A stretch of DNA of 64,000 nt from a virus. Lineage: Duplodnaviria > Heunggongvirae > Uroviricota > Caudoviricetes. Shown piece by piece: positions 15,640 through 64,000 of this stretch (within the stretch, counting starts at the first letter, position 1; each line of letters opens with the position of its first letter). Both the position numbers and the translations under genes were made by a program. The notes under the pieces were generated by a model. The model had not been told where the DNA came from. It did no database searches and saw only the letters and a program-made list of their open reading frames with translations. The stretch lies in IMG/VR virus record IMGVR_UViG_3300050187_000003, positions 11,576 to 75,575 of that record; one strand, 5' to 3'.

Positions 15640-17544
15640 TCATGGTCGGGTCACCTCCACATCGACACGGCGGTACCCGTCCACCACACCATGATCGGCG
15701 ACCACGCGGTACCGCAGACCGCGCTCCAGCATGATTTCGGCCTCGGCGGCGACCTCGCGCGTGGACGCGTCGCCCAGGTCGGACAAGCGGATGGCGCCGG
15801 TGCCGCGGGGGACGAGGAGCCGCATCACGATGCCACCGCGGCCGGGCCCGCGTGGGTGGCCGAACCGTTCGGCGACGGCGGTGTCGGCGGTGCTGGATCC
15901 GTAGGCCCGGTCGGTCCACGTCCAGCCGGTGACGTCCTGGGTGGCCCAGTCCGCGCCGAACGCGGGGGTGGGTCGGAATCCGCGCTCGACGACGACGTCG
16001 CCGTTGAGGTGGGACGCGGCGAGGATGGCGTCCAGTGCGTCGACCTTCTCGGCGATCTCGGCGGTCGTGGCGGAGGCCCGGAGCTGGTCGTTGATGTCCT
16101 GGAACCAGGATCCGCGGTAGTCGGCGAGCGCGTAGGCGGCTGCCAGTCGGGGGCGGCGGTCGAGGCCACCGCCGAGGAGTTCGGGCGCTGGGCCGGTGGT
16201 GAGTCTGATCGGGGCGGTGTCCAGGGCTGCCTGGCGGGTGGCGGCGGCGGCGAACGGGTCGACTGGTGCGGGTGGCGGCGGGCGCGGTGTGACTGGTGCC
16301 GGTCGGGGCGGTGTGGGTGGCGTCAAGTCCTCGGCTTGGATGGGTGAGCCGGGTCCGCCGGTGAGCGGCCGGGGCTGCGAAACACCTGGGCCACCGGTGC
16401 GCGGGCCGGGGATGTTGCCGGCGCCGATCTGCTCGCGGTAGCTCAGCCGCTTCAGCTCGGGGTTGGCGGCGAGGTGCTTGCGCATCTCGCCCTGCCATGC
16501 GCGGACCTTCCCGCGTGCGCCCGCAGCGGCGGCCGGGTCCAGGGCGCTGGCTTCGCGTTCCTTCCACTTCCGGATGCCGCGCTCGATCTCGCGCTGCCGC
16601 TCCTTCGCCCGGTAGCCGTCCGGGTTCTCGGTCGGCCGAGTCGGCCGGCGGGTCGCACCGGGCAGAAACGCCCTGGCGGCATGTGAACAATTTGGGTGGA
16701 ATAGTCCAGCCGCGCGGGCCGCGGCCAGGCTGCCGGCGATGTCCACTGTGACCGTGCCGGCGCCCACCATCGAGGGCAGCTCCACCCGGCCCCGGATGCC
16801 GCCGGAGATGGAAAGGATCTTGCTTTCCCAGGGTCGACATTTTGGACATTCTCGGGGTGAATCGGACACGATGACCGTGTCCACACCGAGGCTGGTCAGC
16901 CGGTCCGTTTGGCCCTGCACAGCGGCCCGCTGCGTGACGGTCCGCGTGGCCATCTCCACATAGGAGGAGAGCCTCCACCGACGACCCGCGCTGTCGACGA
17001 AGGACGTGACACCCTGGTCGACCAGCCGCTGGTAGGCGTGCTGTGCGGCCTGCCTCCGGGTCTGCCCACCGGCGATGCTGACCGCGGTCGCCTGCTGGAT
17101 CACCTCGCGGTAGACGTCGAGCACGTGCCTGAGGACGTTGCTGTGCCGGGCCCCAATGTCGTCGACCAGGGCTGCGGCGAGGGACTCGACCGCAGCCACG
17201 CGGGGCACCTGCTGGATGACCGCGGCGAGCCGGCCCGCGTCCGGGTCACCGCGCAGCAGCGACGCCGGGAGGCCGACCGTGGCCAGGCCCTGCCCGGACC
17301 GGTAGGCGGCGGCGAGGGTGGACCGGATCTGGTCGGCGCCGGCCGCCTGGACGAGGCCGAGGACCCGCTCCGTTGCGGCGCGGAGGGTGGCCAGGGCGCC
17401 GAGTCGGGTGACGGCCCAGTCGGGTGCGTCCATGCCGGCCCGGAGCCGGCGGGTGATCTCCCGCAGGATCGCCTGCTCCGCCTCCTGGTAGAGACCGACG
17501 GTCGACGCCGTCACCGCTTCGATCTGGTCGCCGGTGAGCGCCAT
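15640..17544 (-). CDS. MuF-like minor capsid (head morphogenesis) protein fused to a C-terminal ADP-ribosyltransferase-like toxin domain
   Basis: MuF core segment ...RRWRLSSYVEMATRTVTQRAAVQGQTDRLTSLGVDTVIVSDSPRECPKCRPWESKILSI is followed by a Pro-rich linker. The C-terminal domain carries R/S/E-type ART motif candidates: YRGSW, YGSSTAD (STS-like) and AEAEIM (ExE-like). Confidence 0.55.
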   Translation of the reverse strand: MALTGDQIEAVTASTVGLYQEAEQAILREITRRLRAGMDAPDWAVTRLGALATLRAATERVLGLVQAAGADQIRSTLAAAYRSGQGLATVGLPASLLRGDPDAGRLAAVIQQVPRVAAVESLAAALVDDIGARHSNVLRHVLDVYREVIQQATAVSIAGGQTRRQAAQHAYQRLVDQGVTSFVDSAGRRWRLSSYVEMATRTVTQRAAVQGQTDRLTSLGVDTVIVSDSPRECPKCRPWESKILSISGGIRGRVELPSMVGAGTVTVDIAGSLAAARAAGLFHPNCSHAARAFLPGATRRPTRPTENPDGYRAKERQREIERGIRKWKEREASALDPAAAAGARGKVRAWQGEMRKHLAANPELKRLSYREQIGAGNIPGPRTGGPGVSQPRPLTGGPGSPIQAEDLTPPTPPRPAPVTPRPPPPAPVDPFAAAATRQAALDTAPIRLTTGPAPELLGGGLDRRPRLAAAYALADYRGSWFQDINDQLRASATTAEIAEKVDALDAILAASHLNGDVVVERGFRPTPAFGADWATQDVTGWTWTDRAYGSSTADTAVAERFGHPRGPGRGGIVMRLLVPRGTGAIRLSDLGDASTREVAAEAEIMLERGLRYRVVADHGVVDGYRRVDVEVTRP

Positions 17545-17548
17545 CGGG

Positions 17549-19165
17549 TCACTCCTCTACCGGCGGGCCTCCGCCTCCCTGCGGGTCGCCCGGGGGCGGG
17601 TTGTTGCCGGCCAGCGCACCCAACGCCGGGCCGACCTCCACCGTGGGCGGTGCGGCGTCGGCGATCCGGGCGACCTCCTCCCGGACCTGGATGTCGTCCC
17701 AGTCGGGGTGCACCATCCGCACGCGGGTCTCCGCTGAGACGGCCTCGGCGGCGTGGAGGAGTTGCAGGGTGCGCGCGACCGTCTCCGGCGTCTCACTGAC
17801 CGAGTCGCCGAACTCGACGTTCGGCCTGACCGGCTCCACTGCGGCGCCGAGCTGGGCGCGCTCCACGGCGAGGTGCAGCTCGACGTACTCCGCGATCGCC
17901 GGGCCCCAGGCGACGATCCGGTTGCCGCGGGTCGTGAAGCTCATGCGCTCGCGCGACTGGACCTCCGTCGCCGTCACCGCGACGTCGCCCTCGTCACCCA
18001 GGGTCTGCGAGGAGAGACCGGCGTGGCGCATCGCGACCTTGGTCAGTTCATCGATCGTGGCCCGGTGTTCTTCGACGCGGATGGCGAACTGGCTGATGGT
18101 GATGCCGGTGCCGCTGTCGGGTAGCGCGTTGACGGCGGCCCAGATTTCCCGTTCGGCGTCGAAGGTTGCGCCGGCACCGGGGCCGTTCGACTGGTGGAGC
18201 ATGTAGCTGGGGACGATGACTCGGCCGCGGCCGAGGCGCAGGTCCCGCATCCAGGACGTCCACGCCTCGTCGACCGCATCGAACCACTGCTCGGATCCGT
18301 CGAAGTCGCTGCGGCCCAGGTACTTCAGCATCGGCGCGGTGCGCCAGCGGCGTTGTGGGCCGGAGTTGGGGACGCGGACGACGTCCAGGCGATCGAGGCC
18401 GGTCGCCTGGCTGCTGTCCTGGTCGACATCCTCGGCGAGGTAGGAGGCGCCGTCGTGCTCGGTCAGCGGAATCGCGCGGCCGAGCTGGTCGGGGGTGCCC
18501 TCGTGGAGCTGGTAGACGATCCGGCCGACGCCGTTGATGACCTCGTGATGTTCAAGCAGGCGGACGACGGTGTTGCCGGAGCGGTCCAGCTCGGACCAGA
18601 AGGTGACGTCGATCAGCTTGCCCCAGCGCAGGTTTGGCAGGGCGCCGTCGGCGTGCACGACGCTGGGGAATGCTTTGTTCGACATCACCTCCTTGTCGAC
18701 GACCGGGCGGAGGTAGACGTCGCCGAGCACGCTGTTGGCCTCGGCAGCGTGCAACAGCAGGGAGTGCAGGCCGTCCTCGATCAGCTCATCGAGGCGGGTC
18801 TGAACCTCGGCGTCCTCGTGCGTGATCTGCGGCGGCTCGGAGAAGATCAGGTTGGCGACGGTGGCGGTGAGGTCGGCGGGGAGTGGGCAGTGCAGGCGGG
18901 CGTCGCGGGTGCCGACGGGTGGTGGGTTGCCCCACAGCCAGCGTGACAGGGTGCCGATGAGTCCGCCGGCGTACTGGCCGGCACGGACGCGTTCGCTTGG
19001 GCTGAGGGTGCGGTTGTTGGCTGCCCGGTTGAGGTACACCTCGCGGAGCCGGTCGGGGTCGCCGACGTACCACGCATCCCAGTCGCGGTAGGCGGTGTAG
19101 GCGGGTTGGTGGGCGGGTGGCGGCCAGGCGCCGCCGGTCGGGATCGGCACCGGGCCTCCATCCAA
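17549..19165 (-). CDS. portal protein
   Basis: 538 aa between the terminase large subunit and the MuF-like gene. Size and position are typical of a portal. Confidence 0.65.
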   Translation of the reverse strand: MDGGPVPIPTGGAWPPPAHQPAYTAYRDWDAWYVGDPDRLREVYLNRAANNRTLSPSERVRAGQYAGGLIGTLSRWLWGNPPPVGTRDARLHCPLPADLTATVANLIFSEPPQITHEDAEVQTRLDELIEDGLHSLLLHAAEANSVLGDVYLRPVVDKEVMSNKAFPSVVHADGALPNLRWGKLIDVTFWSELDRSGNTVVRLLEHHEVINGVGRIVYQLHEGTPDQLGRAIPLTEHDGASYLAEDVDQDSSQATGLDRLDVVRVPNSGPQRRWRTAPMLKYLGRSDFDGSEQWFDAVDEAWTSWMRDLRLGRGRVIVPSYMLHQSNGPGAGATFDAEREIWAAVNALPDSGTGITISQFAIRVEEHRATIDELTKVAMRHAGLSSQTLGDEGDVAVTATEVQSRERMSFTTRGNRIVAWGPAIAEYVELHLAVERAQLGAAVEPVRPNVEFGDSVSETPETVARTLQLLHAAEAVSAETRVRMVHPDWDDIQVREEVARIADAAPPTVEVGPALGALAGNNPPPGDPQGGGGPPVEE

Positions 19166-19495: not shown

Positions 19496-20785
19496 TCAGG
19501 CCGCGAGGGTGACGGCGCTCCGGAGCAGCGGCCGCCAGAGCACTTCGGGCGTTTTTATGGCATATCTAGCAGCATCGATGCTGTGGTCGTCTGCCTTGAT
19601 CGGGGCGTCTGAACCGTCCCGGTCGACGGCCTTGTCATCCCAGGCGTAGCCGGGGATCTCTTCGATCAGGCCCTTGCATGACTGGTGCACGCGGAGCTGG
19701 TCGTTGCCGAGCAGGCTCGACATGAGCCGGATCCCGTCGAGGACGGAGTTGTCGGCGGCCGCCGAGGTCATGCCGTCCTCGATCAGCTGGAGCCGCAGCG
19801 ACCGGGCGGACGGGTCGACAACGGTCCACTCCGGGGCCAGGCCGGTGAGCCCGGTCGTGCCGGGCACTTCCAGGGCGCCGAGCCAGCGGCGGAGTTCGCG
19901 GGAGAGGCCGCGGTCGGTGAGCTGGCGGCGGGCGATGGCCGGGTCGTGCCGCCACTCGTGGGTCAGGTAGAGCCGTCCGTCGCGGCCGGCGCCGAGGATG
20001 AGGGCGGCGGTGGCGTTGCGGGTGCCGTAGTCGATGCCGATGCTGATCCAGCGGTGGATTTCCGGCAGGACTGGGATGACGTGGCGGTCTTCGTCCCACA
20101 TGTCGAAGACGGCGCCTTCGGCCTGGACCCAGTTGCCGAGGATGAACCGCTTGTACCACAGGCCGACGTACTCGATCTTGAGGTCGGCGACGTACGCGGG
20201 GTCGAGGTGCGGGTTGTCGTCGAGGGTGCTGTGCCAGGTACGCAGGTTCAGCTCGCCGACGCGTTGCAGGTACTTCTTGCGGAGCCAGTGGGCTGGGCTG
20301 TCGGGGTTGGTGGTGCCGAACAGCTGCGCGCCGGCCACGCTCAGCCGGGCGAGGACCTGGGTGAAGAACGCCTCCGGGATGGTGGTCAGTTCGTCGCCGT
20401 AGGCCAGGCACAGCGTCATGCCCCGGACCTTCGGCTCCGCCTTCGCGTCGTTGGCGCCCAGGACGTCGACCTCGCGGCCGAGGATGGTGCCGGTGGGTGC
20501 GCCCGTATTGTACCTGGTCAGCCTGGCCAGGGGGCCGAACAGGGCCGGGTCGGTGAGCACGGAGAACACGTTTCGGTTGACGGCCTCGCGGGTCTTGCCG
20601 AAGAGCAGGACCCTGCCCGATGTCGGCGCGGCGGCGACGGCGAGCAGGAACCGCAGCAGCGACGCGACCGTCTTGCCGGACCTGACCGAGCCCTGCCAGA
20701 TGTTGAGGCGGGCCGTGGACTCGACCACCGAGCGGAGGTGGATCGGGGACAGCGACCGGGTGACGACGTCGAGGTCAACCGGCAT
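19496..20785 (-). CDS. terminase large subunit
   Basis: Walker A WQGSVRSGKT lies near the N-terminus, with the ATPase and C-terminal nuclease-type regions after it. The likely start MPVDLDVV... is internal to ORF 19496..20869, which would otherwise overlap the small subunit by about 95 nt. Confidence 0.65.
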   Translation of the reverse strand: MPVDLDVVTRSLSPIHLRSVVESTARLNIWQGSVRSGKTVASLLRFLLAVAAAPTSGRVLLFGKTREAVNRNVFSVLTDPALFGPLARLTRYNTGAPTGTILGREVDVLGANDAKAEPKVRGMTLCLAYGDELTTIPEAFFTQVLARLSVAGAQLFGTTNPDSPAHWLRKKYLQRVGELNLRTWHSTLDDNPHLDPAYVADLKIEYVGLWYKRFILGNWVQAEGAVFDMWDEDRHVIPVLPEIHRWISIGIDYGTRNATAALILGAGRDGRLYLTHEWRHDPAIARRQLTDRGLSRELRRWLGALEVPGTTGLTGLAPEWTVVDPSARSLRLQLIEDGMTSAAADNSVLDGIRLMSSLLGNDQLRVHQSCKGLIEEIPGYAWDDKAVDRDGSDAPIKADDHSIDAARYAIKTPEVLWRPLLRSAVTLAA

Positions 20786-21233
20786 CGGACTCGGGCCCGG
20801 TGAGCTGGTCGTAGGCGGCGCCCAGGCCGCGGGCGAGGGCTCCGAGCATGCTCTTCGCGGCGTCAACACCAGGGTCGGCGTCGTGCTTGGTCAGGGCGAG
20901 ATGCTTGTCAATGAAGATGCCGTAGGCTATGGCCCAGCCCTTGGCGTCGTTGCCGTTTTCGGCGGTGAGGATGCTGGAGCGTAGGACGGTTGCGACGCCA
21001 ATCGTGCCGGTTGCCTCAGTTGCCCGGGCGGACCGGTTGTCGGCCTGGACGGCCTCGGTCGCCTTTTTGGTCGTTGATCGGTCAAACGGTGTCGAGATGC
21101 CTGCTTCGGCGGCGATGTTGGTGACGCTGGCCTTGCTGACCCCGTGGTCTCGGGCAATTTGGGCCCGGCTTTTCTGGCCTGCGCGGATGTCGTCTGCGCA
21201 GGCTGCGCGGATGTTGTCGGGGATCCGGGTCAT
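20775..21233 (-). CDS. terminase small subunit (HTH DNA-binding)
   Basis: 152 aa with an N-terminal HTH (KSRAQIARDHGVSKASVTNIAAEAG), immediately upstream of and overlapping the large subunit. Confidence 0.45.
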   Translation of the reverse strand: MTRIPDNIRAACADDIRAGQKSRAQIARDHGVSKASVTNIAAEAGISTPFDRSTTKKATEAVQADNRSARATEATGTIGVATVLRSSILTAENGNDAKGWAIAYGIFIDKHLALTKHDADPGVDAAKSMLGALARGLGAAYDQLTGPESDAG

Positions 21234-21306
21234 GGGTCACCTCCGCCGACCCTTGGCCGGTCTGGCTGTCGGCGGCGCGCCTTGCGCGCTACCGCTGTGC
21301 GTTCGG

Positions 21307-21380
21307 TGGCGGAGGCGTGATTTGAACACGCGGCCTCTGGGTTGTTGACCCAGCGAGCTACCGGGCTGCTCTACTCCGCT
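21307..21380 (-). tRNA. tRNA-like element: canonical D- and T-arms, atypical anticodon loop (TCAACAA, anticodon AAC, C33) and an A1:C72 acceptor mismatch
   Basis: Minus-strand sequence AGCGGAG-TA-GAGC-AGCCCGGTA-GCTC-G-CTGGG-TCAACAA-CCCAG-AGGCC-GCGTG-TTCAAAT-CACGC-CTCCGCC-A folds as a cloverleaf. No encoded CCA. Either a phage tRNA or a pseudo-tRNA/att remnant. Confidence 0.35.
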
Positions 21381-26499: not shown

Positions 26500-26681
26500 G
26501 CCGGCACCTCCCGCCGGGTCTCGTGGTGGGGCGGGCATTCGACCGAATGCCCGCAAGGGTGACCGATCGACAACACCAGGCCGTCACGGGCGGCGATCCG
26601 GGTGCCATCTGCGGAGAGCGTGACTGTCCGGCCTTCGCGGACGAAGAAGTCCGTGGCGAGCCAGTTCCAGCAGACCAACAT
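26496..26681 (-). CDS. small hypothetical protein (about 61 aa)
   Basis: MLVCWNWLATDFFVREGRTVTLSADGTRIAARDG... Its start overlaps the upstream stop and its stop overlaps the next GTG start, so it sits in a chain of translationally coupled genes. Confidence 0.25.
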   Translation of the reverse strand: MLVCWNWLATDFFVREGRTVTLSADGTRIAARDGLVLSIGHPCGHSVECPPHHETRREVPA

Positions 26682-27439
26682 CACGCCACCGCCGACGGCC
26701 GTGGCGACACGAACCGGGCCAACTCGAACTGGGCAACCACCCCGCTCACCTCGCCGCGCCGACCCGCGCGGGCCTTCGCCACAACCAGGTTGTCCCGGTT
26801 CGTAGATGCGAACCGGGACAGCATCACCACGGCGTCGGAAATCTCGGCCATCTGCCGCGACGGCAGATGATGCAGCATCGGGTGGCGCCATGCGTCGCGG
26901 ACCTGAGTGGTGACTACTACTGCGGCGTCCTTACTGTTGGCGATCTTCCGCAGCTCCTCTACGGCTTCGTAGCTGCGGAAGAAGGGGCTGTCCACGGCGA
27001 TGAGCCGGGCAGACGACTCGCGGACGAACCCCATGACGGTGGCTGCCGTCCGCGCCTCAATGACGGCGAGCGGGGCGGCGTTCCACGCAGGCTGCGCGGC
27101 GTGTAGACGCGTCGCCTCGGCCACGTCGGGTGCCGTCGTGTTCGGTACCGGCACCTCGGCCATGCCGGCGAGGATCCGGTTGTCTCGCTGAACGGGGTTG
27201 TACTCGCCGTCGATCAGCAGCGTAGGCACCCCCCGGTTGACGGCGTTGGCGCGGACGATCGTGTCGACCAGGGTGGTCTTTCCGGAGGCTGCGGATCCGG
27301 CGATCAGGTTGACGGTGCCGGGCCGGAAGCCACCGCCGAGGAGCGCGTCGAGCTCGGGCAGGCTGGTGGTGTAGCGATCAGGGGTCATGACAGTTCTCCT
27401 CGGGGCGGGGGTTGATGGGGTGGGGTAGGCGGTCATCAC
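26681..27439 (-). CDS. RecA-like / DnaB-C-terminal-like ATPase (KaiC/RadA superfamily)
   Basis: Walker A LIAGSAASGKTTL and Walker-B-like LLIDGEYNP. Lies directly downstream of DnaB. Confidence 0.45.
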   Translation of the reverse strand: MMTAYPTPSTPAPRRTVMTPDRYTTSLPELDALLGGGFRPGTVNLIAGSAASGKTTLVDTIVRANAVNRGVPTLLIDGEYNPVQRDNRILAGMAEVPVPNTTAPDVAEATRLHAAQPAWNAAPLAVIEARTAATVMGFVRESSARLIAVDSPFFRSYEAVEELRKIANSKDAAVVVTTQVRDAWRHPMLHHLPSRQMAEISDAVVMLSRFASTNRDNLVVAKARAGRRGEVSGVVAQFELARFVSPRPSAVA

Positions 27440-28767
27440 ACGATCGCCATGTCCACGAACCGCGACTTGTCCAGCTGTGCGGCGACTGTGACCTTGCCTT
27501 TGGTCGCCGACCGGGCTTTCAGGACAAAGACGTCGGCTTCGCCCATGCGTGGCGATTCGTGGTCGTAGTAGTCAGGCCGGTACAAGCCCAAGACCACGTT
27601 CGACGCATTGGCGATCGCCCGTGACCCACGCAGGTCACCTAGCTGTGGTTCTTTGTCCGTGCGGGTGTCGGCGTTGCCGTTGGCCTGGGAGGCTGCGATC
27701 ACGGGAACGTCGAGGTTGCCGGCCATGTTTTTCAGCCCTTGGCTGACGTCGCTGATCTGTTCCTGTTCGGTGTTGCCCCGCTTTGACGGCCGCACCAGCT
27801 GGTTGTAGTCGACGATCACCGCGTCCAAGCCGTGCTTGGCCGCTAGGACCCGGCAGTAGCCTTCCATCTGCTTGACGGTGATCTCGGACTGGTCGCACAG
27901 GAACAGCGGCGCTGTCGACATGGGGCCGAGGACGTTCGACATCCGCGACCAGTGGCGTTCGTCGAGGTCGCCGTCGCGAATGAAGCGGTAGGGGACGCCG
28001 GACTCTGCCGACAGGATGCGTTCGAACAACTCGTCGCAGGCCATTTCGAGGCTGAAGTGGGCCACCGTGTACTTTTTCTTGATCGACAGGTGCCGGGAGA
28101 TGTCGGTGAGGAAGAGCGACTTTCCGCCGCCGGTAGGCGCGACAACGGTGATCAGCTGCTTCTTCCGCAGCCCACCCAACATCTTGTCCAGGTCGATGAA
28201 CCCAGTCGGTAGGCCAGCGGGTGTGTCTTTGCGTTGCTCGATCGCGTCCAGGCGGTCGTTGACGAGTTCCCCCAACTGGACCATGACGCCGTTGGTGTTG
28301 CGGACTGGCCGGATCTGCTGGATGAGTTCCTCTGCCAGCGTGTGGGCCTGCTCCGATGTCCACCCTGAGGAGGTGGCGGCGTTGGTGATGCGGATACCGG
28401 CGGCCTGTAGGCGGCGGCGGGTCGCCATCTCCAAGACCCGGTCGACGTAGTAGCCGGCCTGCGCGACGGTCGGTACTGCGGCGACGCATCTGTGCAGGAA
28501 AAGCACGCCTCCGTCGTATGCGCCGAGTAGCCCTTGGTCGGCGAGGAACCCAGCCAGCGCCACTGGTTCGGTGGGAACACCGGATTCGTGCGCGGAGACG
28601 ATGTGCTCAAACAGGGTGCCGTGCCGGGGCTGGTAGAAGTCGATCGACCCGAGTTTGACGGCGACATCGTTGACGAGGCTGCTGTCAAGCATGAGCGTAC
28701 CGAGAATGATGCGTTCGGCGGCGATGTCGAAGGCCGGGGCTGCTTCAACGGTGTCGGTAGCGGTCAT
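27436..28767 (-). CDS. dnaB: replicative DNA helicase DnaB
   Basis: 443 aa. N-terminal DnaB domain, Walker A VVAPTGGGKSLFL, and motifs ...AHFSLEM..., ...VIVDYNQL..., ...IAASQANGNADTR... typical of DnaB. Confidence 0.75.
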   Translation of the reverse strand: MTATDTVEAAPAFDIAAERIILGTLMLDSSLVNDVAVKLGSIDFYQPRHGTLFEHIVSAHESGVPTEPVALAGFLADQGLLGAYDGGVLFLHRCVAAVPTVAQAGYYVDRVLEMATRRRLQAAGIRITNAATSSGWTSEQAHTLAEELIQQIRPVRNTNGVMVQLGELVNDRLDAIEQRKDTPAGLPTGFIDLDKMLGGLRKKQLITVVAPTGGGKSLFLTDISRHLSIKKKYTVAHFSLEMACDELFERILSAESGVPYRFIRDGDLDERHWSRMSNVLGPMSTAPLFLCDQSEITVKQMEGYCRVLAAKHGLDAVIVDYNQLVRPSKRGNTEQEQISDVSQGLKNMAGNLDVPVIAASQANGNADTRTDKEPQLGDLRGSRAIANASNVVLGLYRPDYYDHESPRMGEADVFVLKARSATKGKVTVAAQLDKSRFVDMAIV

Positions 28768-30092
28768 CGGGTCTCCTGGGGTAGCGGTGTTTCGCGGCCA
28801 GCGGCGATGGTGCGGGCGTAGTCGGCGAGTTGGTCCGCGGTCAGCCCGCGCTGGTAGAGGGCGCCGAACTGAGCGGTGATTTTCATCAGGTCGTCAACGC
28901 TGTGCCGGCCGGGGGCGACTTGTCGCCAAGCGGTTACGGCGGCGGCGACGGCCGGGTGGGTGCGTTCCCGGACTCGGATTGGCAGGCTGCTGCCGGTGCG
29001 GCAGAGCGGGCACAGCAGCAGGCCGGTGGTGGGGTGGGGGGTTTCACCGGCTGCGGTGCCGTGTTTGCAGTCAGGGTGGGTGCTTTGAAGTCTGAGGATC
29101 TGTTGTTCGAGCTGTTTGGCGCGGTTTTTGCGGATTTCATCGTAGATGGGGGTGAAGCTGCGGTTGCTGGTCATGGTTCGCAGGTAGCTGGCGTTGACGC
29201 GGGTGCCGTAGCGGTTGAGGACGGCGCGGTGGACGGCGGTGGCGTCGTCGGCGGTGGCTTCGGGGTGGCCGGCGGCGTGGAGCCCGTTGAGGATGATCTG
29301 GGTGGCTTGGGGTAGCTGGCTGATGGTTTTGGGGAACAGTGCTGGCTGGCGTCCTCGGTAGGGCTTGTTGAGGGGCGCTACGGGGGGTGTTGGTTTGCGT
29401 TCTGTGTTGGCGGGCTTGTTGGTTGGGTTGGCTGCCGGCGTCGGTGGGGTGGGGGGTTGTGAAGGTTCTCCGCGCAGCGCCGACGGTGTTGGTTCAAGGT
29501 TTAAAAACCTAGAAAAAGGAGAAGGCTCCCCCGTTAGTCCGCCAGGCGGACTAGTTTGGTCCGCCTGGCGGACTAAGGTTTCGTCATCTTGGTCCGCCAG
29601 GCGGACTAACGTTAGTCCGCCTGGCGGACTAACAGGGGCCTCATCTTGGTCCGCCAGGCGGACTAGGTCATCGACGAGCTTCAGGTTCGGACGTCCAGAA
29701 CGCCGTAACGCTCCGTCTACATTTGGTCCGCCTGGCGGACTGGCCTTCGGGGCCTTCCGGCGAGACGAACGCTTCGGCAACGTCACCTCGGCCTCGCCGA
29801 CCGACAGCTGATACCCCGACCGCGCCGTTGCCCCGTCCGCCACCCGCCGAACCCACCCGGCAGCCGTCAACACCTTCATCCACTCGGCAACCGACGACCG
29901 AGCCACCCCGGTCATCGACGCCAGTTGGTCGAGTGTCGGAGCATGGCTCAGCGGAACCTCGGCGGTGCTGGCCACGGACCGGCACAGCAGCGTCAGCATG
30001 ATCAGCCTGCCGGTGCCGTCAATGGAGGACGTGAACACTGCCGATTCCACCTCCCATCTGGTTGTCAAAGGGGGTCTCCTGCTGCTCGTCAT
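28764..30092 (-). CDS. replication initiator protein (N-terminal wHTH; iterons embedded in coding sequence)
   Basis: HTH segment LDQLASMTGVARSSVAEWMKVLTAAGWV. The internal repeated peptide motifs (PPGGLT / LVRLADQ) are encoded by the 15-bp palindromic iterons. Upstream of dnaB, analogous to lambda O/P. Confidence 0.5.
   Translation of the reverse strand: MTSSRRPPLTTRWEVESAVFTSSIDGTGRLIMLTLLCRSVASTAEVPLSHAPTLDQLASMTGVARSSVAEWMKVLTAAGWVRRVADGATARSGYQLSVGEAEVTLPKRSSRRKAPKASPPGGPNVDGALRRSGRPNLKLVDDLVRLADQDEAPVSPPGGLTLVRLADQDDETLVRQADQTSPPGGLTGEPSPFSRFLNLEPTPSALRGEPSQPPTPPTPAANPTNKPANTERKPTPPVAPLNKPYRGRQPALFPKTISQLPQATQIILNGLHAAGHPEATADDATAVHRAVLNRYGTRVNASYLRTMTSNRSFTPIYDEIRKNRAKQLEQQILRLQSTHPDCKHGTAAGETPHPTTGLLLCPLCRTGSSLPIRVRERTHPAVAAAVTAWRQVAPGRHSVDDLMKITAQFGALYQRGLTADQLADYARTIAAGRETPLPQETR
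29495..29745. repeat. origin of replication: AT-rich block plus six copies of the 15-bp palindromic iteron GTCCGCCWGGCGGAC
   Basis: Seen directly. Copies at 29537, 29559, 29592, 29615, 29649 and 29726, with conserved flanks TTRGTCCGCC...GGACTAA. AT-rich GGTTTAAAAACCTAGAAAAAGGA at 29495-29520. Confidence 0.7.
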
Positions 30093-30121
30093 CGGGGGTG
30101 TGCTTGGCGGGGCTAGGCGGC

Positions 30122-30328
30122 CTAGGTGTTGTCCCACCGGGCGAGCCAGTGGCAGGACCACTGGTGGCCGCAGCGGCGGTGCCGGTAGAGGGCGATGAGG
30201 GCGTCGCCTTCGGTGGTGGTGGCGTAGGGGACGACGACGCCGCTCCAGTCCTTGTATGTCTGGCACTTGTCGCTGAACGGCGGGGCGGTTGGCCGGTCCT
30301 TGGCTGCTATCTCGAACGAGTAGGTCAC
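30122..30328 (-). CDS. small zinc-ribbon-like protein
   Basis: GTG start with GGAG upstream. ...YRHRRCGHQWSCHW... plus KCQTYKDW. Confidence 0.3.
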   Translation of the reverse strand: MTYSFEIAAKDRPTAPPFSDKCQTYKDWSGVVVPYATTTEGDALIALYRHRRCGHQWSCHWLARWDNT

Positions 30329-30433: not shown

Positions 30434-30727
30434 ATGACGGTCATCGCAGGGCAACCCCTGCCACGAACTCAGTACGGAAGTCGTTACGATCTGGAGGTGA
30501 CCAGACGCGTAATGATGGGAATCCAGGAGCTGCGACTGCGGCTCAAGGAACGCGTTTCCGCAGTACAGGACGGCATCCACACCGTCTTCACCCGCCACGG
30601 CCGACCCGTTGCCGTGCTCGTCGACATCGACTGGTACCGGCGCGCCGTGGACGCCATCGGCGATGCCCCGCTCGGGTTCGAGAACCCCGAGCCGCTGCCC
30701 GACAGGACATGGAACGACGGCAGCTAG
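30434..30727 (+). CDS. Phd/YefM-family type II antitoxin homolog (orphan; no cognate toxin gene found)
   Basis: Segment IQELRLRLKERVSAVQDGIHTVFTRHGRPVAVLVDIDWYRRAVDAI matches the Phd/YefM fold signature. Start may be at 30434 or at the internal ATGATG near 30512. Plus strand, opposite to the lytic genes. Confidence 0.55.
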   Translation: MTVIAGQPLPRTQYGSRYDLEVTRRVMMGIQELRLRLKERVSAVQDGIHTVFTRHGRPVAVLVDIDWYRRAVDAIGDAPLGFENPEPLPDRTWNDGS

Positions 30728-32443: not shown

Positions 32444-32676
32444 TCGGTGACGCGTTTACGGGTTGGGGTGGTGAGGATGCTGAACTCGCCGGTCAGGTCT
32501 GCTGGCGGCGAGTTCAGGTCGGCGAGAATCTGCTCGGCCTCCCGGCACAACTTGACGCACCGGCGAACCTGCCTGCGGCTGTCGACCCGGCCGGTCGAGC
32601 GGCGGCCAATCACGATGCCGATCGCGTAGCCGACCATGCCGGCGATGCTGATAGCGGCGACGATCGCGAAGCCCAT
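32410..32676 (-). CDS. small membrane protein (N-terminal TM, basic C-terminal tail), co-operonic with the SPFH gene
   Basis: MGFAIVAAISIAGMVGYAIGIVIG... Overlaps the SPFH start by 34 nt, and its start abuts the lipoprotein stop. Confidence 0.4.
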   Translation of the reverse strand: MGFAIVAAISIAGMVGYAIGIVIGRRSTGRVDSRRQVRRCVKLCREAEQILADLNSPPADLTGEFSILTTPTRKRVTEWRNNYRKVNP

Positions 32677-32945
32677 CAGCGTCGAATCCTTGCCGGCTTG
32701 GGGGTGGGCTTGCCGTCCGACCTCGCCACTCCAGCCGCCGTCTTCTTCGGCTGGGCTGTCGGCGTCGGCTTACGGGTAGCTGGCGGTTTGCCGTAGCAGT
32801 CCTCGTCGCCTTCCAACAGGTCGCCGAAGTCGCAGTCCGGCACATCCTCGGCAGGCTGCTGCGGTGTGGCCTTTCCGTCGCAGGCCGCGAGCACCGGGAC
32901 AGCGGCCACGACGCCGGCCATGGCGAGGAAACTTCGGCGGCGCAT
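32676..32945 (-). CDS. Tat-type secreted lipoprotein (89 aa)
   Basis: MRRRSFLAMAGVVAAVPVLAAC: twin-arginine RRxFL motif plus lipobox LAAC. Mature part is Pro/Lys/Thr-rich with a DCDFGDLLEGDEDCYG motif. Confidence 0.5.
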   Translation of the reverse strand: MRRRSFLAMAGVVAAVPVLAACDGKATPQQPAEDVPDCDFGDLLEGDEDCYGKPPATRKPTPTAQPKKTAAGVARSDGKPTPKPARIRR

Positions 32946-33508
32946 CAGAACAACGGCCTGTCGTTGAAGCCGGTGAGCACGTTGTAGATGGCCGCCGTCC
33001 AGCGGCAGTCACCGAGCGCGGTGTGCCGGTCGTATTCGTCCGGGTCTACACCGACCGCACGAGAGATGTCGTCCGACTTCCCGCTCGCCGGCACCGCGCC
33101 GTCTCGGCCGAGTAGCCAGCCTTCCGCCATGTCGATGACGTCCTTGGGCCGGTACCAGCGGGACGGCATGATGCCGTTGACGCGCATCCGTCGGTCCAGG
33201 GTTTCGGTGTCGAACGACGGGTTCGAACCGGCAGCAACCGCACCCCGGAGGTAGCGTTCGGCTTCGGTTAGCGCCTGGAGTTCGCTGACGGCCGAACCCA
33301 TCCCGGTGAATCCGGGGTGCCGCTCGTAGAATCGGCCCACGTTCAGCGCGGTCAGGTCGGCGTTACCGAGGTCGCAGTCCTCGGCGCGGATTATCCACGA
33401 CCGCTCACGTACGCCGCTCTCGTCGCGGCGGATGACGGCGATTTCCCACGGCCGCCGGTCCGGGCCAAGACTCGTCGTCTCACAGTCCAGAAAACACAGA
33501 GGTCTCAC
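32945..33508 (-). CDS. DnaQ-like 3'-5' exonuclease (DEDDh)
   Basis: Exo I FLDCETTSL, Exo II NPSFDTETL and Exo III HTALGDCRWTAAIY motifs. Confidence 0.6.
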   Translation of the reverse strand: MRPLCFLDCETTSLGPDRRPWEIAVIRRDESGVRERSWIIRAEDCDLGNADLTALNVGRFYERHPGFTGMGSAVSELQALTEAERYLRGAVAAGSNPSFDTETLDRRMRVNGIMPSRWYRPKDVIDMAEGWLLGRDGAVPASGKSDDISRAVGVDPDEYDRHTALGDCRWTAAIYNVLTGFNDRPLF

Positions 33509-44336: not shown

Positions 44337-44527
44337 GACCGCTCACCACCGGCCGTGTCACGAACGAACTGGGGCAGGTCGTTGCCGACGACGTCGCGGT
44401 ACGCCTCGGCCATGCCCCGATAGCGGACAGCCGTAGCGACATCGAGTGTTTCCCACGCTTCCCGTGCCAGCCGCTCATAGGTGCGCTGCTTCGCAGTGAT
44501 TTGTGCTGCGAGAGGTGCCAGGTTCAC
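44333..44527 (-). CDS. hypothetical protein (64 aa)
   Basis: ORF, coupled to its neighbours. Confidence 0.25.
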   Translation of the reverse strand: MNLAPLAAQITAKQRTYERLAREAWETLDVATAVRYRGMAEAYRDVVGNDLPQFVRDTAGGERS

Positions 44528-45624
44528 GACGCCACCTGCGTCTTCTTGGCTTCTTCCATCGCGCCCAGGAACCGGCGCATGTCATCCGCCGACGCCTCAT
44601 CCGACGACCTGCCCACCAGTTGGCAGAAGCTCCGCTCCAACTCGGCCTTGTCATCCCACGGCGACTCCGCCAGGATCTGCCCCCACAGGCTGTCCAACTC
44701 GTCGACCACCACCGCGTCCACCGGGGCGACCGGACCAGGCGAGGACGAAGCAGGTTGGGCTGCTCGGATCGCCGCCGCCTTCTGCTCGAACATCACCCGC
44801 AGATCCGCCGGGATCTCCCCACCGTGCGAACCCTTCACCTGCTCGGCCAGCCCATACAGGGCGTTCAAGTTCTTCGCCGCATCGATCAGCGACGGGTAGT
44901 CCACTGCGGCGGCGATCGCCGTCCGGACCTCACCCGCCACCGCCGCGCTATTCCGGGCCGCGATCAGGTCCTGCACCCGGCCGGACATCAACTGCTTCGG
45001 CGTCAACGCATCCACATGCAGCGTCGGCACCGCGAAGTTGAACGTCTTCGCCTCACCGTTGACCTGCCGGGTTACCGTCCGCTGATCCAGCACGAGCCGG
45101 GCCGGGATCGCCCCTTGCGCCATCGCCAACAACTGGGCAACACCAGGCAGCTCGACGGCCGCGTAGTAGGAGCCGGTGTCGACCCGCCACGCGCCCAAGC
45201 CGGGAACGTCTTCCAGCATCACCCGCAGCCGGGTGTGCATCTTGCAGTCCCGCGCCTCCGGGTCACACAGGCACGCCGACTTCGTGATCTTCTCATGCTG
45301 GCCATCGCAGCGCCGCAGACAGCCGCCCTTCGACCACATCTCGTACCACTGGTTGTCGGACGGGTCCTGCGGCGGCACCACCACCGGCACCTCGCTGGTG
45401 TTGGTGATGACCTGCCACTGGCCGGCACCCTTCGGCGGCTGCCACGGCTGGACGGAGCCGCCGTACAACTCGGCGATCCGCTCGATCAGCGCCTTCCGGG
45501 GCGAGGTGAACCGGAGCCGGTCCAACTTGCCCGGCCGGGTCTTGCCGCTCGCCGTCTGAACGAGGACACCGAGCCGGATACGGCCGACCTCGGTCTGCTG
45601 CTGTTGGAGCTGAATGATCGGCAT
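44524..45624 (-). CDS. hypothetical protein, candidate recombination partner (SSAP-like by synteny) of the adjacent exonuclease
   Basis: 366 aa. N-terminal beta-rich region with a Cys cluster (GGCLRRCDGQHEKITKSACLCDPEARDCKMH). Directly downstream of the Cas4-like exonuclease, with start/stop overlap. Function is inferred from position only. Confidence 0.35.
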   Translation of the reverse strand: MPIIQLQQQQTEVGRIRLGVLVQTASGKTRPGKLDRLRFTSPRKALIERIAELYGGSVQPWQPPKGAGQWQVITNTSEVPVVVPPQDPSDNQWYEMWSKGGCLRRCDGQHEKITKSACLCDPEARDCKMHTRLRVMLEDVPGLGAWRVDTGSYYAAVELPGVAQLLAMAQGAIPARLVLDQRTVTRQVNGEAKTFNFAVPTLHVDALTPKQLMSGRVQDLIAARNSAAVAGEVRTAIAAAVDYPSLIDAAKNLNALYGLAEQVKGSHGGEIPADLRVMFEQKAAAIRAAQPASSSPGPVAPVDAVVVDELDSLWGQILAESPWDDKAELERSFCQLVGRSSDEASADDMRRFLGAMEEAKKTQVAS

Positions 45625-46499
45625 CAGGATTCCTTCGGGAGGTTCACGGGACGGGACAGGACAGTCCCGAGAGGAGAGGTCAGGCCCTCAACGACACGAA
45701 GCATGTGGACAAACTTGGCGTGGTTCTCCGGGGTCAGATGCACCTCACGCATCTGCACCTTGTCCGGCCGGACGTGCAGAATCAGGCCGGCCTGCACCGG
45801 CGGCATCGGCAACTCCGACCCGTCCGGCAGCAACACTGCGTCGGCGCCCGCGTAGGCGTTGACCTGCCAGCCCTCCGAGTGGGCGAGGTGCTTGCCGGAC
45901 TTGATGTCGTCCACCACCGCCAGCCCGGCGAGGTGCTTCAGCTTCGGCGGCAGCGGCGAGTCGTCGGGGAACCGCAGGATGCCGTCGAGCGTGCCGGCGT
46001 ACCCCCACTTACGGGAGATCACCGTCATCTCGGCTGCCTCGAACTGCGGCCGGTACAGGCGACGCCACCGCCGGTACCGGGCAACGTAGGGGGCGATGTC
46101 GTCATCGACGTGGAAGCCTTCGCCGAACAGTTCCATCTGCTCGGCGGCGTCGTGGATACGGCGGCCACGGTCACCGGCGTCGTCACGAACCTGGTTGTGC
46201 TGGTTCGCCAGCCAGTACACGGCGCAGTCGGGGCACTGCCCGCAGGCGTTGTCGGTGCGGGTGGCGTTGCACGGCAGGTTACGGGAGCAGCGGTTCAGCC
46301 ACGGCAACCGATCGACGGCGGCCTGGGCAGCGAGTCGCGCGGACCAGTCGGGTAGCCCGAACTTGGCGATGTAGCCGAGGACGGTGGTGACGGAGATGAA
46401 CCGTTCGCCGGTGACGGGGTGGATGTAGTAGCGGGAGCCGGTGTGCGGGTCGGTTTCGGCGTTGGCCGGACCGGCGGGTTTCTCGGCGGTGACTGTCAT
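45624..46499 (-). CDS. PD-(D/E)XK exonuclease, Cas4/RecB-like with 4-Cys cluster
   Basis: ...CSRNLPCNATRTDNACGQCPDC... plus PDDEXK-like core (...VVDDIKSGK...). Internal start MTVTAEKPAGPAN... Confidence 0.5.
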   Translation of the reverse strand: MTVTAEKPAGPANAETDPHTGSRYYIHPVTGERFISVTTVLGYIAKFGLPDWSARLAAQAAVDRLPWLNRCSRNLPCNATRTDNACGQCPDCAVYWLANQHNQVRDDAGDRGRRIHDAAEQMELFGEGFHVDDDIAPYVARYRRWRRLYRPQFEAAEMTVISRKWGYAGTLDGILRFPDDSPLPPKLKHLAGLAVVDDIKSGKHLAHSEGWQVNAYAGADAVLLPDGSELPMPPVQAGLILHVRPDKVQMREVHLTPENHAKFVHMLRVVEGLTSPLGTVLSRPVNLPKES

Positions 46500-51054: not shown

Positions 51055-51276
51055 CTAAAAGGGACCCCGGGCCGGGTCCGGGCGACGCCGAAACCTCACG
51101 GGAGTCGGCAAAGAAACCGGGGCCGCCGGATCGGCGACCGTGCCCGTGGCGGCGTACCGCCACACATCAAGGCAGCCGACACGACCATCGACATGAACCC
51201 AGCCGTCAGAAGCACGAGTCGCCGACCGTCCACAATGGCGACATACGTCGATCACCGGCCGCATCAGGCAGCCCAC
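51055..51276 (-). CDS. possible small zinc-ribbon protein
   Basis: CRHCG...C motif. Weak. Confidence 0.2.
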   Translation of the reverse strand: MGCLMRPVIDVCRHCGRSATRASDGWVHVDGRVGCLDVWRYAATGTVADPAAPVSLPTPVRFRRRPDPARGPF

Positions 51277-52208
51277 CCATCCAGCAGAGACAACTGCCCG
51301 ATCTCGCCAAGCCCCCGGGACAACGACGACGCCTGCGTGGACAACGCCTGCTCACGCCACGTCAACGCCCAACGGAAACAGTTCCGACAGTCCGTCTCCC
51401 GGCGCAGCCCTGTCACCGGGTGCGGCCTTGACAGATGCCGGCAGCCCGGACGCATCACCTGCTCATCGCGGGCAACCTTCGACCAGGCTTGGCTGTCCGC
51501 GGTGGACAGCAGATGCCCGGCAACCCGCAGCGCGTTGATAGACACGCCGAAACCGTGCAGTCGCATTCCCAAACCGAGTTCGGCGATGGTGCCCAACACA
51601 CGGGCCACCCCCGTCTGCGAACCACGCCGGCACACCGACCCGACGCCGACCCGCAATCCGGCCAGGTCGACCCCGTTCTGCCGGTACATGTCGACGTGGG
51701 CGACGTACTCCCACGGATGCCAGCCCTGCAAGGTGGGCAGCCAGTTGATGAACGGAAACTCCTCGGCCAGATAGCAGTAGTTCTCGACCGTCAACTCCTG
51801 GTGCTCCCGAACCGTTTTCCCGGTGCGGGCGAGGACCTGCGGCTCACACGGCCAGTCCTGGATGCCAACAAAGTCGGGCATCAACTCCCGCGAGCTGTGG
51901 CCGACCGCCTCGGTGAAGTCGACCCACATCGACCCGTAGTCGTCGGGCCACCGCCTCCACGGGTGATCCCGCCGGCCGTTGCTCAGCATGAGAGCGGCGT
52001 ACGAGTCGCCAGCCCACGGGGTGCCGAACGTCTGCACGGGCCAGTCGTCGCCCTGCCCCTCGTAGACGCTCCTGTATTTAGCCAGGGTGGTGGCGGAGAT
52101 GAACAGCGGCACGGGGGAGTCGCGCAGGTGATGCGGATGCCCGACGCCCAGGTAGAAGCCGAACCGGCACGGACGTCCCGGCTGGGCAGGCGAACACTCC
52201 CTGCTCAT
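51264..52208 (-). CDS. tRNA-guanine transglycosylase (TGT)-superfamily protein, DpdA-like candidate
   Basis: FGFYLGVGHP...PLFISATTL...LHGFGV... plus a C-terminal Cys/His cluster (PGCRH...DCRNC) resembling the TGT zinc site. Confidence 0.4.
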   Translation of the reverse strand: MSRECSPAQPGRPCRFGFYLGVGHPHHLRDSPVPLFISATTLAKYRSVYEGQGDDWPVQTFGTPWAGDSYAALMLSNGRRDHPWRRWPDDYGSMWVDFTEAVGHSSRELMPDFVGIQDWPCEPQVLARTGKTVREHQELTVENYCYLAEEFPFINWLPTLQGWHPWEYVAHVDMYRQNGVDLAGLRVGVGSVCRRGSQTGVARVLGTIAELGLGMRLHGFGVSINALRVAGHLLSTADSQAWSKVARDEQVMRPGCRHLSRPHPVTGLRRETDCRNCFRWALTWREQALSTQASSLSRGLGEIGQLSLLDGWAA

Positions 52209-52474
52209 GTCGGCATCCCGAATGTTCCGGCAAGGCAGAACACCGCTAGCCCGAACACCAGTAGTCCCACGACGAGCAGCGCCGTAGCCCGGACCCGGAC
52301 CCACGTCGACTTCACGTTCACGTCAGACGGCCGACGGGGCAGGCGAATCATGAGCCCGCCTTCGCGGGGGTCTCCGAGGCTGCGCAGTCGGCGTGCGCCA
52401 GCCCGAGCAACTGGCCGGTCAACCAGACAGACGGCTGCCCGAACAGCAGTGGCACCCCGCAGCCTCGTTTGCAC
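52205..52474 (-). CDS. small membrane protein
   Basis: C-terminal ATALLVVGLLVFGLAVFCLAG. Confidence 0.25.
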   Translation of the reverse strand: MQTRLRGATAVRAAVCLVDRPVARAGARRLRSLGDPREGGLMIRLPRRPSDVNVKSTWVRVRATALLVVGLLVFGLAVFCLAGTFGMPT

Positions 52475-53844: not shown

Positions 53845-54273
53845 ATGACGGGCAACTTCACCGACTCGTACTATCGCCCCATGACACACGCACGCGATAC
53901 CGGCGGAGTTGACACTCCCGGACGCCGCTTCGCAGTACTCATCTCAGACGCACGCAGCCGCGCGGGCATGACCCAGGAGCAACTCGTCGACGTCTCCGGT
54001 GTCACCCGCCAGACGATCATCAGGTACGAGTCCGGGCGGGCAGTCAACCCCAAACCACTCGACGTCCGCGCAGTTTGCCTCGCACTCGGACTGCACCCCC
54101 GCGAAGCGGCCATCGCACTCGGCTACTGCACTCGCGAGGAAATGGGAGCAGCCACACCATCAGACCCCACCACCGACGAGGTCACAACAATCCTCCAAGA
54201 CACACGCATCCCAGACACAGACCGACAATCCTGGATCCAGTACCTGCGGTACCTGCACAACAAAGCCAGCTAA
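53845..54273 (+). CDS. cI-like XRE-family repressor
   Basis: GMTQEQLVDVSGVTRQTIIRYESG is an HTH. Plus strand, adjacent to the integrase and divergent from the Cro-like gene. Confidence 0.55.
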   Translation: MTGNFTDSYYRPMTHARDTGGVDTPGRRFAVLISDARSRAGMTQEQLVDVSGVTRQTIIRYESGRAVNPKPLDVRAVCLALGLHPREAAIALGYCTREEMGAATPSDPTTDEVTTILQDTRIPDTDRQSWIQYLRYLHNKAS

Positions 54274-55727: not shown

Positions 55728-55790
55728 CCCGGCATGCTATCTGTCTGCCTGTTGCCCGTCTAGCTTGGCGCAGGGACAAGGGGCAGACTC

Positions 55791-58186: not shown

Positions 58187-58353
58187 AGGTGTACATGTAC
58201 ACCTGTCCCCCTCGGACCCCGAGAATCGGTTACGCGGAGTAGTCGGCCGACAGCACGCCTGACCTGCGTAAATATAAGTTGATGTTGAAAACGGGGGGAC
58301 TTTCAAGATACGGATGCATGGGTGGCAGGGGTACATGTACACCTGTACACCCC
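58187..58353. repeat. two copies of the 16-mer GTACATGTACACCTGT (the first inside the 18-bp perfect palindrome AGGTGTACATGTACACCT) flanking an AT-richer stretch
   Basis: Seen directly at 58191-58206 and 58331-58346. The first copy is embedded in the roughly 41-bp imperfect palindrome CGAGGGGGGTACAAGGTGTACATGTACACCTGTCCCCCTCGG. Confidence 0.5.
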
Positions 58354-63845: not shown

Positions 63846-64000
63846 GCCACACCTTGGTTGCGGGAGCGGTCAACGACCTCGTTGGCGATGGACTCGAAGT
63901 CACGGTTGTAGCCGAAGACGGGCGTTCCGCCTTTCAACCTGACCCCGACAGCGCCAGTCCAGCCGCCGCCGGGGTCCGGTTCGATGCGTCCAAGCACCAC
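63843..64000 (-). CDS. partial CDS (C-terminal end), coupled to the methyltransferase start
   Basis: ...GGGWTGAVGVRLKGGTPVFGYNRDFESIANEVVDRSRNQGVA*. ATGA overlap with the downstream gene. Confidence 0.2.

Follow-up and report, generated by a model that had tools for sequence, protein, structure and literature searches.

A probable replication origin embedded in the gene for its own initiator in a prophage-like element of an actinomycete

Results

The replication locus and its setting

We analysed a 64,000-nucleotide stretch of viral DNA (IMG/VR record IMGVR_UViG_3300050187_000003, positions 11,576 to 75,575), here called the window, in which a predicted initiator gene on the minus strand carries a candidate replication origin within its own coding sequence. 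The candidate consists of six palindromic repeats, or iterons, and an adjoining AT-rich island, and the gene that follows encodes a DnaB-type replicative helicase (Table 1). By its gene content the window is a temperate siphovirus-like element, with genes for a terminase, a portal, a fusion of MuF with an ADP-ribosyltransferase (MuF-ART), a beta clamp, an exonuclease, a large serine recombinase, a Gp3-like recombination directionality factor and DpdA. The beta clamp and exonuclease genes lie near the initiator and helicase genes. The GC content is 68.6% across the 64-kb window, and the element is prophage-like, with a high-GC actinomycete, probably one of the Micromonosporaceae, as its host.

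Anatomy of the iteron array

The 15-mer GTCCGCCWGGCGGAC occurs in six exact copies that together span 29537-29740. With up to two mismatches allowed it is found nowhere else in the 64 kb, where 0.79 matches are expected by chance, and none of 100 shuffles reached six copies; the relaxed pattern GTCCGCNNNGCGGAC, searched with one mismatch allowed, added a single site, an unrelated one at 5100. An earlier note on this DNA, made from its letters, had described six palindromic 15-mers with conserved flanks, and both features hold. Indeed, the conservation of the flanks makes the true unit a 21-bp near-perfect palindrome, TTRGTCCGCCWGGCGGACTAR, with TTAGTCCGCCWGGCGGACTAA as the 21-mer form of the window iteron. 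The same note put the spacing at about 22-34 bp, which is correct for four of the five distances between iteron starts (22, 33, 23 and 34 bp in plus-strand order) but not for the fifth, which is 77 bp. As the note also proposed, the repeats lie inside the open reading frame (ORF) of an initiator with a predicted winged helix-turn-helix and encode repeated peptides; we read these as VRLADQ or VRQADQ in one codon phase and SPPGG(L/P) in another. Within the gene they occupy nucleotides 329-532 of 1305, after the winged-helix domain (amino acids 1-106) and before the C-terminal domain (amino acids 239-434).

The iterons are also regularly phased. Their centres in the window have a best period of 11.15 bp (R = 0.97), a fit matched by 0.4% of arrays under our own simple random-spacing null model, which is a rough one. 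The related locus L011 gave 11.4 bp (R = 1.0) and L009 gave 11.25 bp (R = 0.91), and 11.25 bp was likewise the best period for the four iterons of phage lambda (R = 0.87). Phasing in the window's family (window, L001, L009 and L011) and in the lambda iterons (lambda record L014, 435-519) is at about 11.2-11.4 bp and not at 10.5 bp. This suggests that all dyads face the same side of the helix within a wrapped nucleoprotein complex.

Two other interpretations of this DNA were set aside. A Dcm-type methylation switch at the CCWGG in the iteron centre was dropped, since relatives have other centres (TCA in the Salinispora type, GAG in L011); it is further disfavoured by the enrichment, rather than avoidance, of CCWGG in the window (288 sites against 210 expected). 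A terminator made of a hairpin and the T-run at 29518-29532 was also considered, and such sites are no more frequent than chance would provide (3 against 1.8 expected).

The AT-rich island

On the plus strand the AT-rich island directly precedes the repeats, as the earlier note had observed; in the direction of the gene it lies 15 nt beyond the last repeat, iteron 6, as it does in lambda. Its core, GGTTTAAAAACCTAGAAAAAGGA at 29498-29520, is 74% AT over 23 nt, and in scans of 23 or 30 nt just one other place in the 64 kb, at 58262-58293, is equally AT-rich. The island sits within a box, CTCTCC..TTTTAA..ACCAACACC, whose DNA sequence is conserved in relatives with 46-48% protein identity, and an AT-rich tract is present in L001, L002 and L005 and in L009. 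The second AT-rich spot is flanked by two copies of a 16-bp palindrome, GGTGTACATGTACACC (58188-58343; one exact, one with a single mismatch), that are 140 bp apart and look like operators around a promoter.

Selection on DNA rather than peptide

In gene order, the six copies in the window fall in codon phases 1, 0, 1, 0, 0, 1 and are read accordingly as SPPGG(P/L) or VR(L/Q)ADQ. The phases are 1, 0, 1, 1, 0, 1 in L001 and L002, the array of L003 uses three phases, and lambda's four annotated iterons, which served as a positive control, are in phases 0, 2, 2, 1. Even an iteron of the same rank can change its reading: iteron 4 encodes VRLADQ in phase 0 in the window, and its counterpart in Salinispora-type relatives is placed 10 bp downstream, in phase 1, and encodes GPLSG. 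Similarly, the peptides VREAD and SPRGG of L011 proved at the DNA level to be two readings of GTCCGCGAGGCGGAC. Since one DNA word is read in two codon phases, selection acts on these repeats as DNA and not as peptide. A cross-frame search for such peptide pairs in 46 family members was too noisy to be of use (1998 matches against 1266 in shuffles).

The initiator protein

The minus-strand ORF that contains the repeats extends over 28764-30266. Its true start is most likely the TTG at 30068, because an AGGAGA Shine-Dalgarno sequence lies 6 nt upstream (30075-30080), because homologues begin MTTRWEVE at the equivalent position and because in-frame GC content at third codon positions (GC3) is not coding-like upstream of 30068. 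A start at 30266, which would give a 500-amino-acid protein, was rejected on the same three grounds. The 434-residue product is identical to the database protein that we designate P0001.

The N-terminal domain is predicted to be a winged helix. Its secondary structure in an AlphaFold2 model is H-H-H-H-E-E, its top Foldseek matches in the PDB are all winged helices of the MarR, Fur or TFE kind (E ~0.08), and its Pfam matches, to HTH_IclR, HTH_Crp_2, MarR_2 and GntR, are weak (E = 2e-4 to 2e-3, all under the curated cut-offs). Residues ~107-238 form a linker that is encoded by the iterons, the AT-rich island and a Pro/Thr-rich tract. This linker is predicted to be disordered, with a predicted local distance difference test (pLDDT) score below 35 across amino acids 99-258 of a 442-residue model, and in-frame GC3 drops there from ~0.85 to 0.4-0.7. 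The C-terminal domain carries an invariant motif, C334-x-H336...C353-x-x-C356, encoded at 29001-29069; it matched no known family or fold, and a fold search with it gave nothing informative.

Relatives and the exchange of iteron and N-terminal domain

Close homologues of the initiator number just a handful, and every locus examined has the same layout, with a repeat array at the same position in the gene, between the two protein domains. The Salinispora-type prophages (L001, L002 and L004-L007), whose proteins are 46-48% identical to the window initiator, each have six GTCCGC-N3-GCGGAC iterons, the first at nucleotide 332 of the gene (329 in the window). Their spacings in gene order are 77, 34, 33, 23 and 22 bp, against 77, 34, 23, 33 and 22 bp in the window: one iteron has shifted by exactly 10 bp and changed its codon phase. 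L011 also has six such iterons, with the centre GAG in four and GAC and CTC once each. When these type-A origins are aligned, the arms GTCCGC and GCGGAC are invariant and the centres and flanks vary.

L003 and L008 have a C-terminal domain in common with the window (53% identity) and an unrelated N-terminal domain. At the same place in the gene they carry another palindrome, GGGTGGCA-N5-TGCCACCC, which is complete in four copies and present as a half-site in two more. The 6.4-Mb chromosome of Micromonospora sp. WMMD558 (CP186061.1) harbours L008 as an integrated prophage. A third repeat type, GGGTCCGGAGGACCC, followed by an AT-rich stretch, is present in L009. The type-A N-terminal domain thus goes with GTCCGC-N3-GCGGAC (8 loci) and the type-B domain with GGGTGGCA-N5-TGCCACCC (2 loci), and the C-terminal domain is common to both. 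Where the N-terminal domain differs, so does the iteron sequence, and the C-terminal domain and the helicase are retained, as would be expected if the N-terminal domain binds the iterons. In the type-B loci (L008, 8019-8055; L003, ~795-830; L010, ~40-75) three tandem 11-mers, ACCCCTCAnAn, come after the iterons, on a strand that is G-free for ~45 nt, and may constitute an unwinding or single-strand-binding element of another kind.

The wider family was collected by an exhaustive profile search, which found the C-terminal domain in 155 representative clusters, nearly always at the C-terminus of proteins of 350-480 amino acids. Several types of N-terminal domain occur among its members, and in 32 of the 44 that were inspected, peptide repeats lie in the part of the protein that precedes the C-terminal domain. 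In one member, P0018, which has the same C-terminal domain as the window protein, the N-terminal domain matches the RefSeq 'replication initiation protein' of 270 actinophage records at 29-42% identity. The window initiator itself had no relative in 50,697 phage records (tblastn included) or, by DNA and protein searches, in 72,556 plasmid records. Genome and metagenome scans with C-terminal-domain patterns yielded no confirmed relatives. The broader alignment of this domain has diverged too far to serve for pattern scans. Three scans of viral contigs with one protein each came back empty, and a word-indexed protein search with a broad profile of the domain returned two proteins only.

The public annotation of several of these genes is truncated. 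At L008 (7542-8714) only the C-terminal 237 amino acids (P0007) of a 390-amino-acid ORF have been called, and P0006 and P0008-P0010 are likewise C-terminal halves, some of them cut by contig ends. It looks as though gene callers are misled by the linker that the origin encodes.

Neighbouring genes and other features

The helicase gene that follows the initiator gene matches Pfam DnaB_C (9e-66), the DnaB N-terminal domain (4e-17) and PHROG 19 (2e-93). The genes downstream of the initiator were examined in ten related loci, and in each of these a DnaB gene follows it. The third gene of the operon encodes an ATPase with Pfam matches to DnaB_C (4e-11), KaiC and AAA_25 and PHROG matches to recombinase and DNA-repair families. 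It is absent from the equivalent position in the Salinispora-type loci L001 and L002, and its part in the origin machinery is uncertain, with loader, recombinase and regulator as candidate roles.

Upstream of the initiator, a small Cys/His-rich ORF (30122 to ~30330, minus strand) ends 54 nt before the initiator start; a small protein of L011 (7551-7796) has a similar C-terminal motif, ..GDxLxAxYxHxRCGxxW. Beyond it, a divergent ORF of 97 amino acids (30434-30727, plus strand), with a sub-threshold match to the Phd/YefM antitoxins (E = 1.9e-6; 28.0 bits, cut-off 29.8), is separated from the replication operon by a lower-GC intergenic region. A search for known RNA families found none at the origin region.

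Further away, the large serine recombinase (54273-55736) and the Gp3-like recombination directionality factor (44527-45687), both on the minus strand, form a phiC31-style pair for integration and excision. Also on the minus strand are an ADP-ribosyltransferase toxin-type domain fused to a MuF-like minor capsid protein 2 (15643-17556), a tRNA-Val gene with anticodon AAC (21305-21380) inside the phage, just downstream of the terminase region, a DpdA homologue (51267-52322; E = 1e-42), which suggests a possible 7-deazaguanine modification of the phage DNA, and a match to the N-terminal part of a C-5 cytosine methyltransferase (63132-63869).

Table 1. Features of the replication locus, with the terminase gene for reference; iterons are numbered in gene order
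Feature	Position	Strand	Description
Initiator gene	28764..30068	-	434 amino acids, TTG start; N-terminal winged helix (predicted), origin-encoded linker, conserved C-terminal domain
N-terminal DNA-binding domain, winged helix-turn-helix (predicted)	29751..30068	-	amino acids 1-106
Iteron 1	29726..29740		GTCCGCCWGGCGGAC; codon phase 1, SPPGGP; 77 bp from iteron 2
Iteron 2	29649..29663		codon phase 0, VRLADQ
Iteron 3	29615..29629		codon phase 1, SPPGGL
Iteron 4	29592..29606		codon phase 0, VRLADQ
Iteron 5	29559..29573		codon phase 0, VRQADQ
Iteron 6	29537..29551		codon phase 1, SPPGGL; nearest to the AT-rich island
AT-rich island, proposed DNA-unwinding element	29493..29523		pyrimidine-rich on the coding strand, still translated (SPFSRFLNLE)
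Pro/Thr-rich remainder of inter-domain linker	29355..29492	-	length and sequence vary among homologues
Conserved C-terminal domain, proposed helicase-recruiting module	28767..29354	-	amino acids 239-434, helical
DnaB-type replicative helicase gene	27436..28767	-	ATG overlaps initiator TGA (ATGA)
DnaB_C-only / KaiC / RecA-like ATPase gene	26681..27439	-	252 amino acids; 4-nt overlap with DnaB gene, same operon
Terminase gene	19499-20890		~9 kb from the iteron array

Discussion

We observe directly the anatomy of the array, the selection on its DNA, a layout kept in the relatives and a change of iteron when the N-terminal domain changes, and these observations lead us to propose, with considerable confidence, that 29493-29740 is a vegetative replication origin embedded in the gene for its own initiator. 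The origin-in-initiator interpretation put forward in the earlier note thus gains support from architecture and comparative genomics. We picture initiation as follows. Dimers of the winged-helix N-terminal domain would bind the six 21-bp palindromes, with the arms GTCCGC and GCGGAC as the recognition elements. With the dyad centres at multiples of ~11.2 bp, these dimers would be arranged on one face of the helix and could build a wrapped complex similar to the O-some, and strain from this complex would melt the adjacent AT-rich island, 15 nt past the last iteron. The Zn-motif C-terminal domain would then recruit the phage's DnaB-type helicase, the product of the translationally coupled gene, onto the melted DNA. 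In this scheme the origin-encoded stretch of the protein would be a mere flexible linker between the two domains.

Several points weigh against this proposal. Initiator binding, DNA unwinding, helicase recruitment and origin firing are all steps that we infer from sequence. GC skew across the window has no inflection at the iteron site. Neither lambda O nor any curated family of initiators is detectably homologous to the window initiator (Pfam, PHROG, NCBIfam, BLASTP), the model of its N-terminal domain is of low confidence (pLDDT 55-75) with weak Foldseek E-values, and a helicase-recruiting role for its C-terminal domain is deduced solely from the position of the domain and the invariably adjacent DnaB gene. 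The joint change of N-terminal domain and iteron is documented on DNA for two domain types and otherwise inferred from peptide repeats. Finally, type-B relatives have the G-free triplet of 11-mers instead of a clear AT-rich island, so the unwinding element is not uniform in the family.

A replication origin suits the context and the comparative data better than any rival explanation. The palindromes could serve transcriptional control only, as sites of autoregulation or a roadblock for the winged-helix protein or another repressor, with the origin elsewhere. Proteins of the MarR, IclR and GntR types, the sole weak Pfam matches of the N-terminal domain, are typically palindrome-binding repressors, and many initiators autoregulate via their own binding sites. 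However, the array has six phased sites ~330 nt into a coding region rather than at a promoter, and no promoter-like site was found nearby. An AT-rich island adjoins it, and in every relative it is linked to the DnaB helicase gene and placed between two protein domains. A separate pair of operator-like palindromes is present elsewhere, at 58188-58343. We consider a purely regulatory array improbable.

Less probable still is a centromere-like site of an extrachromosomal prophage, with the winged-helix protein as its centromere-binding protein. Centromeres of plasmids and phages frequently consist of clustered short repeats in phase, to which small helix-turn-helix or ribbon-helix-helix proteins bind, and the operon does contain an ATPase gene, but this ATPase is DnaB_C/RecA-like and not ParA-like and is missing from L001 and L002, and none of the neighbouring genes matched a ParA or ParB family. 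The element encodes a serine recombinase and a Gp3-like recombination directionality factor and so integrates, its relative L008 is integrated in a 6.4-Mb chromosome, and the plasmid records searched held no relative.

There is very little to recommend a pac- or cos-type site, or another recombination site, that lies in the initiator gene by chance: some pac sites are indeed intragenic and made of repeated boxes, but the array is ~9 kb from the terminase gene and inside the replication module, and its repeat sequence follows the N-terminal domain of a replication-module protein, not the terminase. The notion that the repeats were selected as a repetitive protein linker, their palindromy as DNA being incidental, can be almost wholly discounted, for although the ORF is open through the repeat region in all relatives and in-frame GC3 (0.72) still exceeds the GC content of the other two codon positions, the codon-phase result effectively refutes it: the same 15-mer in two phases gives the unrelated peptides VRLADQ and SPPGGL, iteron 4 codes for different peptides in the window and its relatives, the DNA arms are invariant even where the peptides differ, and the repeat-encoded stretch is predicted to be disordered.

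The origins of actinomycete phages are almost unmapped, and this locus offers a precise candidate together with its cognate initiator, whose family occurs in prophages of Micromonospora and Salinispora. Few genetic tools exist for these two genera, which could benefit from a small replicon. The natural exchanges of N-terminal domain and iteron provide material for studying how initiator specificity evolves. Annotation is affected too: several database entries, including NCBI's for Micromonospora sp. WMMD558, hold only the C-terminal half of the initiator. In principle the result comes as no surprise, yet it is well defined and can be tested directly.

The arrangement can be compared with several known systems. 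In lambda the origin occupies the central part of the initiator gene and consists of 18-19-bp inverted-repeat iterons, each bound by an O dimer, with an adjacent AT-rich unwinding region of ~40 bp; Stx phages have six iterons, as the window does, and in-frame deletions in the origin-encoded part of O leave a functional protein (PMC7466680, PMC6022878), which fits a dispensable linker. The likeness extends to detail. The lambda iterons start at nucleotide 349 of the 900-nt O gene, against 329 here, and are read in several codon phases; an AT-rich tract (78% AT) comes directly after the last iteron, the phasing is ~11.25 bp, and O and P overlap by 4 nt as the initiator and its next gene do. In contrast to lambda, the window has GC-rich near-perfect palindromes and a 77-bp gap after the first iteron. 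Lambda has the host DnaB handed over via the loader P, whereas in the window a DnaB-type helicase is encoded by the phage itself and no gene resembling P was seen. The protein, too, is different: the isolated N-terminal domain gave no match to PF04492 (Phage_rep_O) even at E <= 1, in a run in which lambda O scored 5.7e-36; BLASTP against lambda O gave E = 0.79; and the initiator matched no PHROG or NCBIfam family. The lambda O-type arrangement claimed in the earlier note therefore stands as architecture and not as family membership (no PF04492 match), and the partner is a DnaB-type helicase and not a P-type loader.

Initiators of iteron plasmids and phage-plasmids (P1 RepA, the pPS10/RK2/R6K type, the RepA of mycobacteriophage prophages) resemble the window's in having a winged helix, multiple phased sites and an adjacent AT-rich unwinding element. 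Their sites are direct repeats in an intergenic origin, whereas those of the window are palindromes inside coding sequence, and the window element, unlike these plasmids, integrates and has no plasmid relative. The initiator matched neither Rep_3, RepA nor any other Rep family in Pfam and NCBIfam; RepL appeared only at E = 0.21. Among actinophages, RepA-dependent prophage replication has been described for the cluster A parABS phages, where no repeats were located and an origin within or near repA was only speculated upon (PMC7157519). Proteins of the type of gp73 of Gordonia phage Fairfaxidum, annotated computationally as 'replication initiation protein', match the N-terminal domain of P0018 and so tie the window's family to actinophage replication modules, although their N-terminal domain is of a different type from the window's and they have no C-terminal domain of this kind.

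The closest analogue is the gene 18/gene 12 module of phage P22, because the downstream partner there is a DnaB-type helicase and not a P-type loader. In the P22 record the origin (rep_origin 32840-32984) is annotated inside gene 18 (32488-33303), and the gene for the DnaB-like helicase, gene 12, follows with a 4-nt overlap, as in the window. P22 differs in its host, an enterobacterium rather than an actinomycete with DNA of 68.6% GC, and in its initiator: gp18 is annotated as 'replication initiation O-like', whereas the window protein has no PF04492 match and carries a C-terminal domain of an uncharacterised family with a Cys/His motif. The window nonetheless has the position of the candidate origin, at least four inverted-repeat iterons, the AT-rich region after the last iteron and the constraint on DNA that mark origins of the lambda/P22 type, together with a change of iteron and N-terminal domain that keeps the C-terminal domain and a coupled next gene that supplies the helicase. 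By sequence, then, the module is of the lambda/P22 type in its architecture and is not classifiable as a lambda O homologue.

It is conceivable, although we lean slightly the other way, that the module is not a diverged lambda O but a convergent, independent invention of the origin-in-initiator design: a family of at least 155 clusters in which interchangeable N-terminal domains, with matching iterons in the linker, are fused to an undescribed Zn-binding helical domain that would load the phage DnaB directly, without a P- or DnaC-type loader. If so, the ~11.2-bp phasing common to this family and lambda would reflect a shared physical requirement of wrapped initiator-origin complexes. The design itself, an origin in the linker of the initiator gene, is the known one of lambda and P22; here it recurs in another phylum, without detectable relatedness of the proteins, and is new in an uncharacterised family of actinomycete-prophage initiators.

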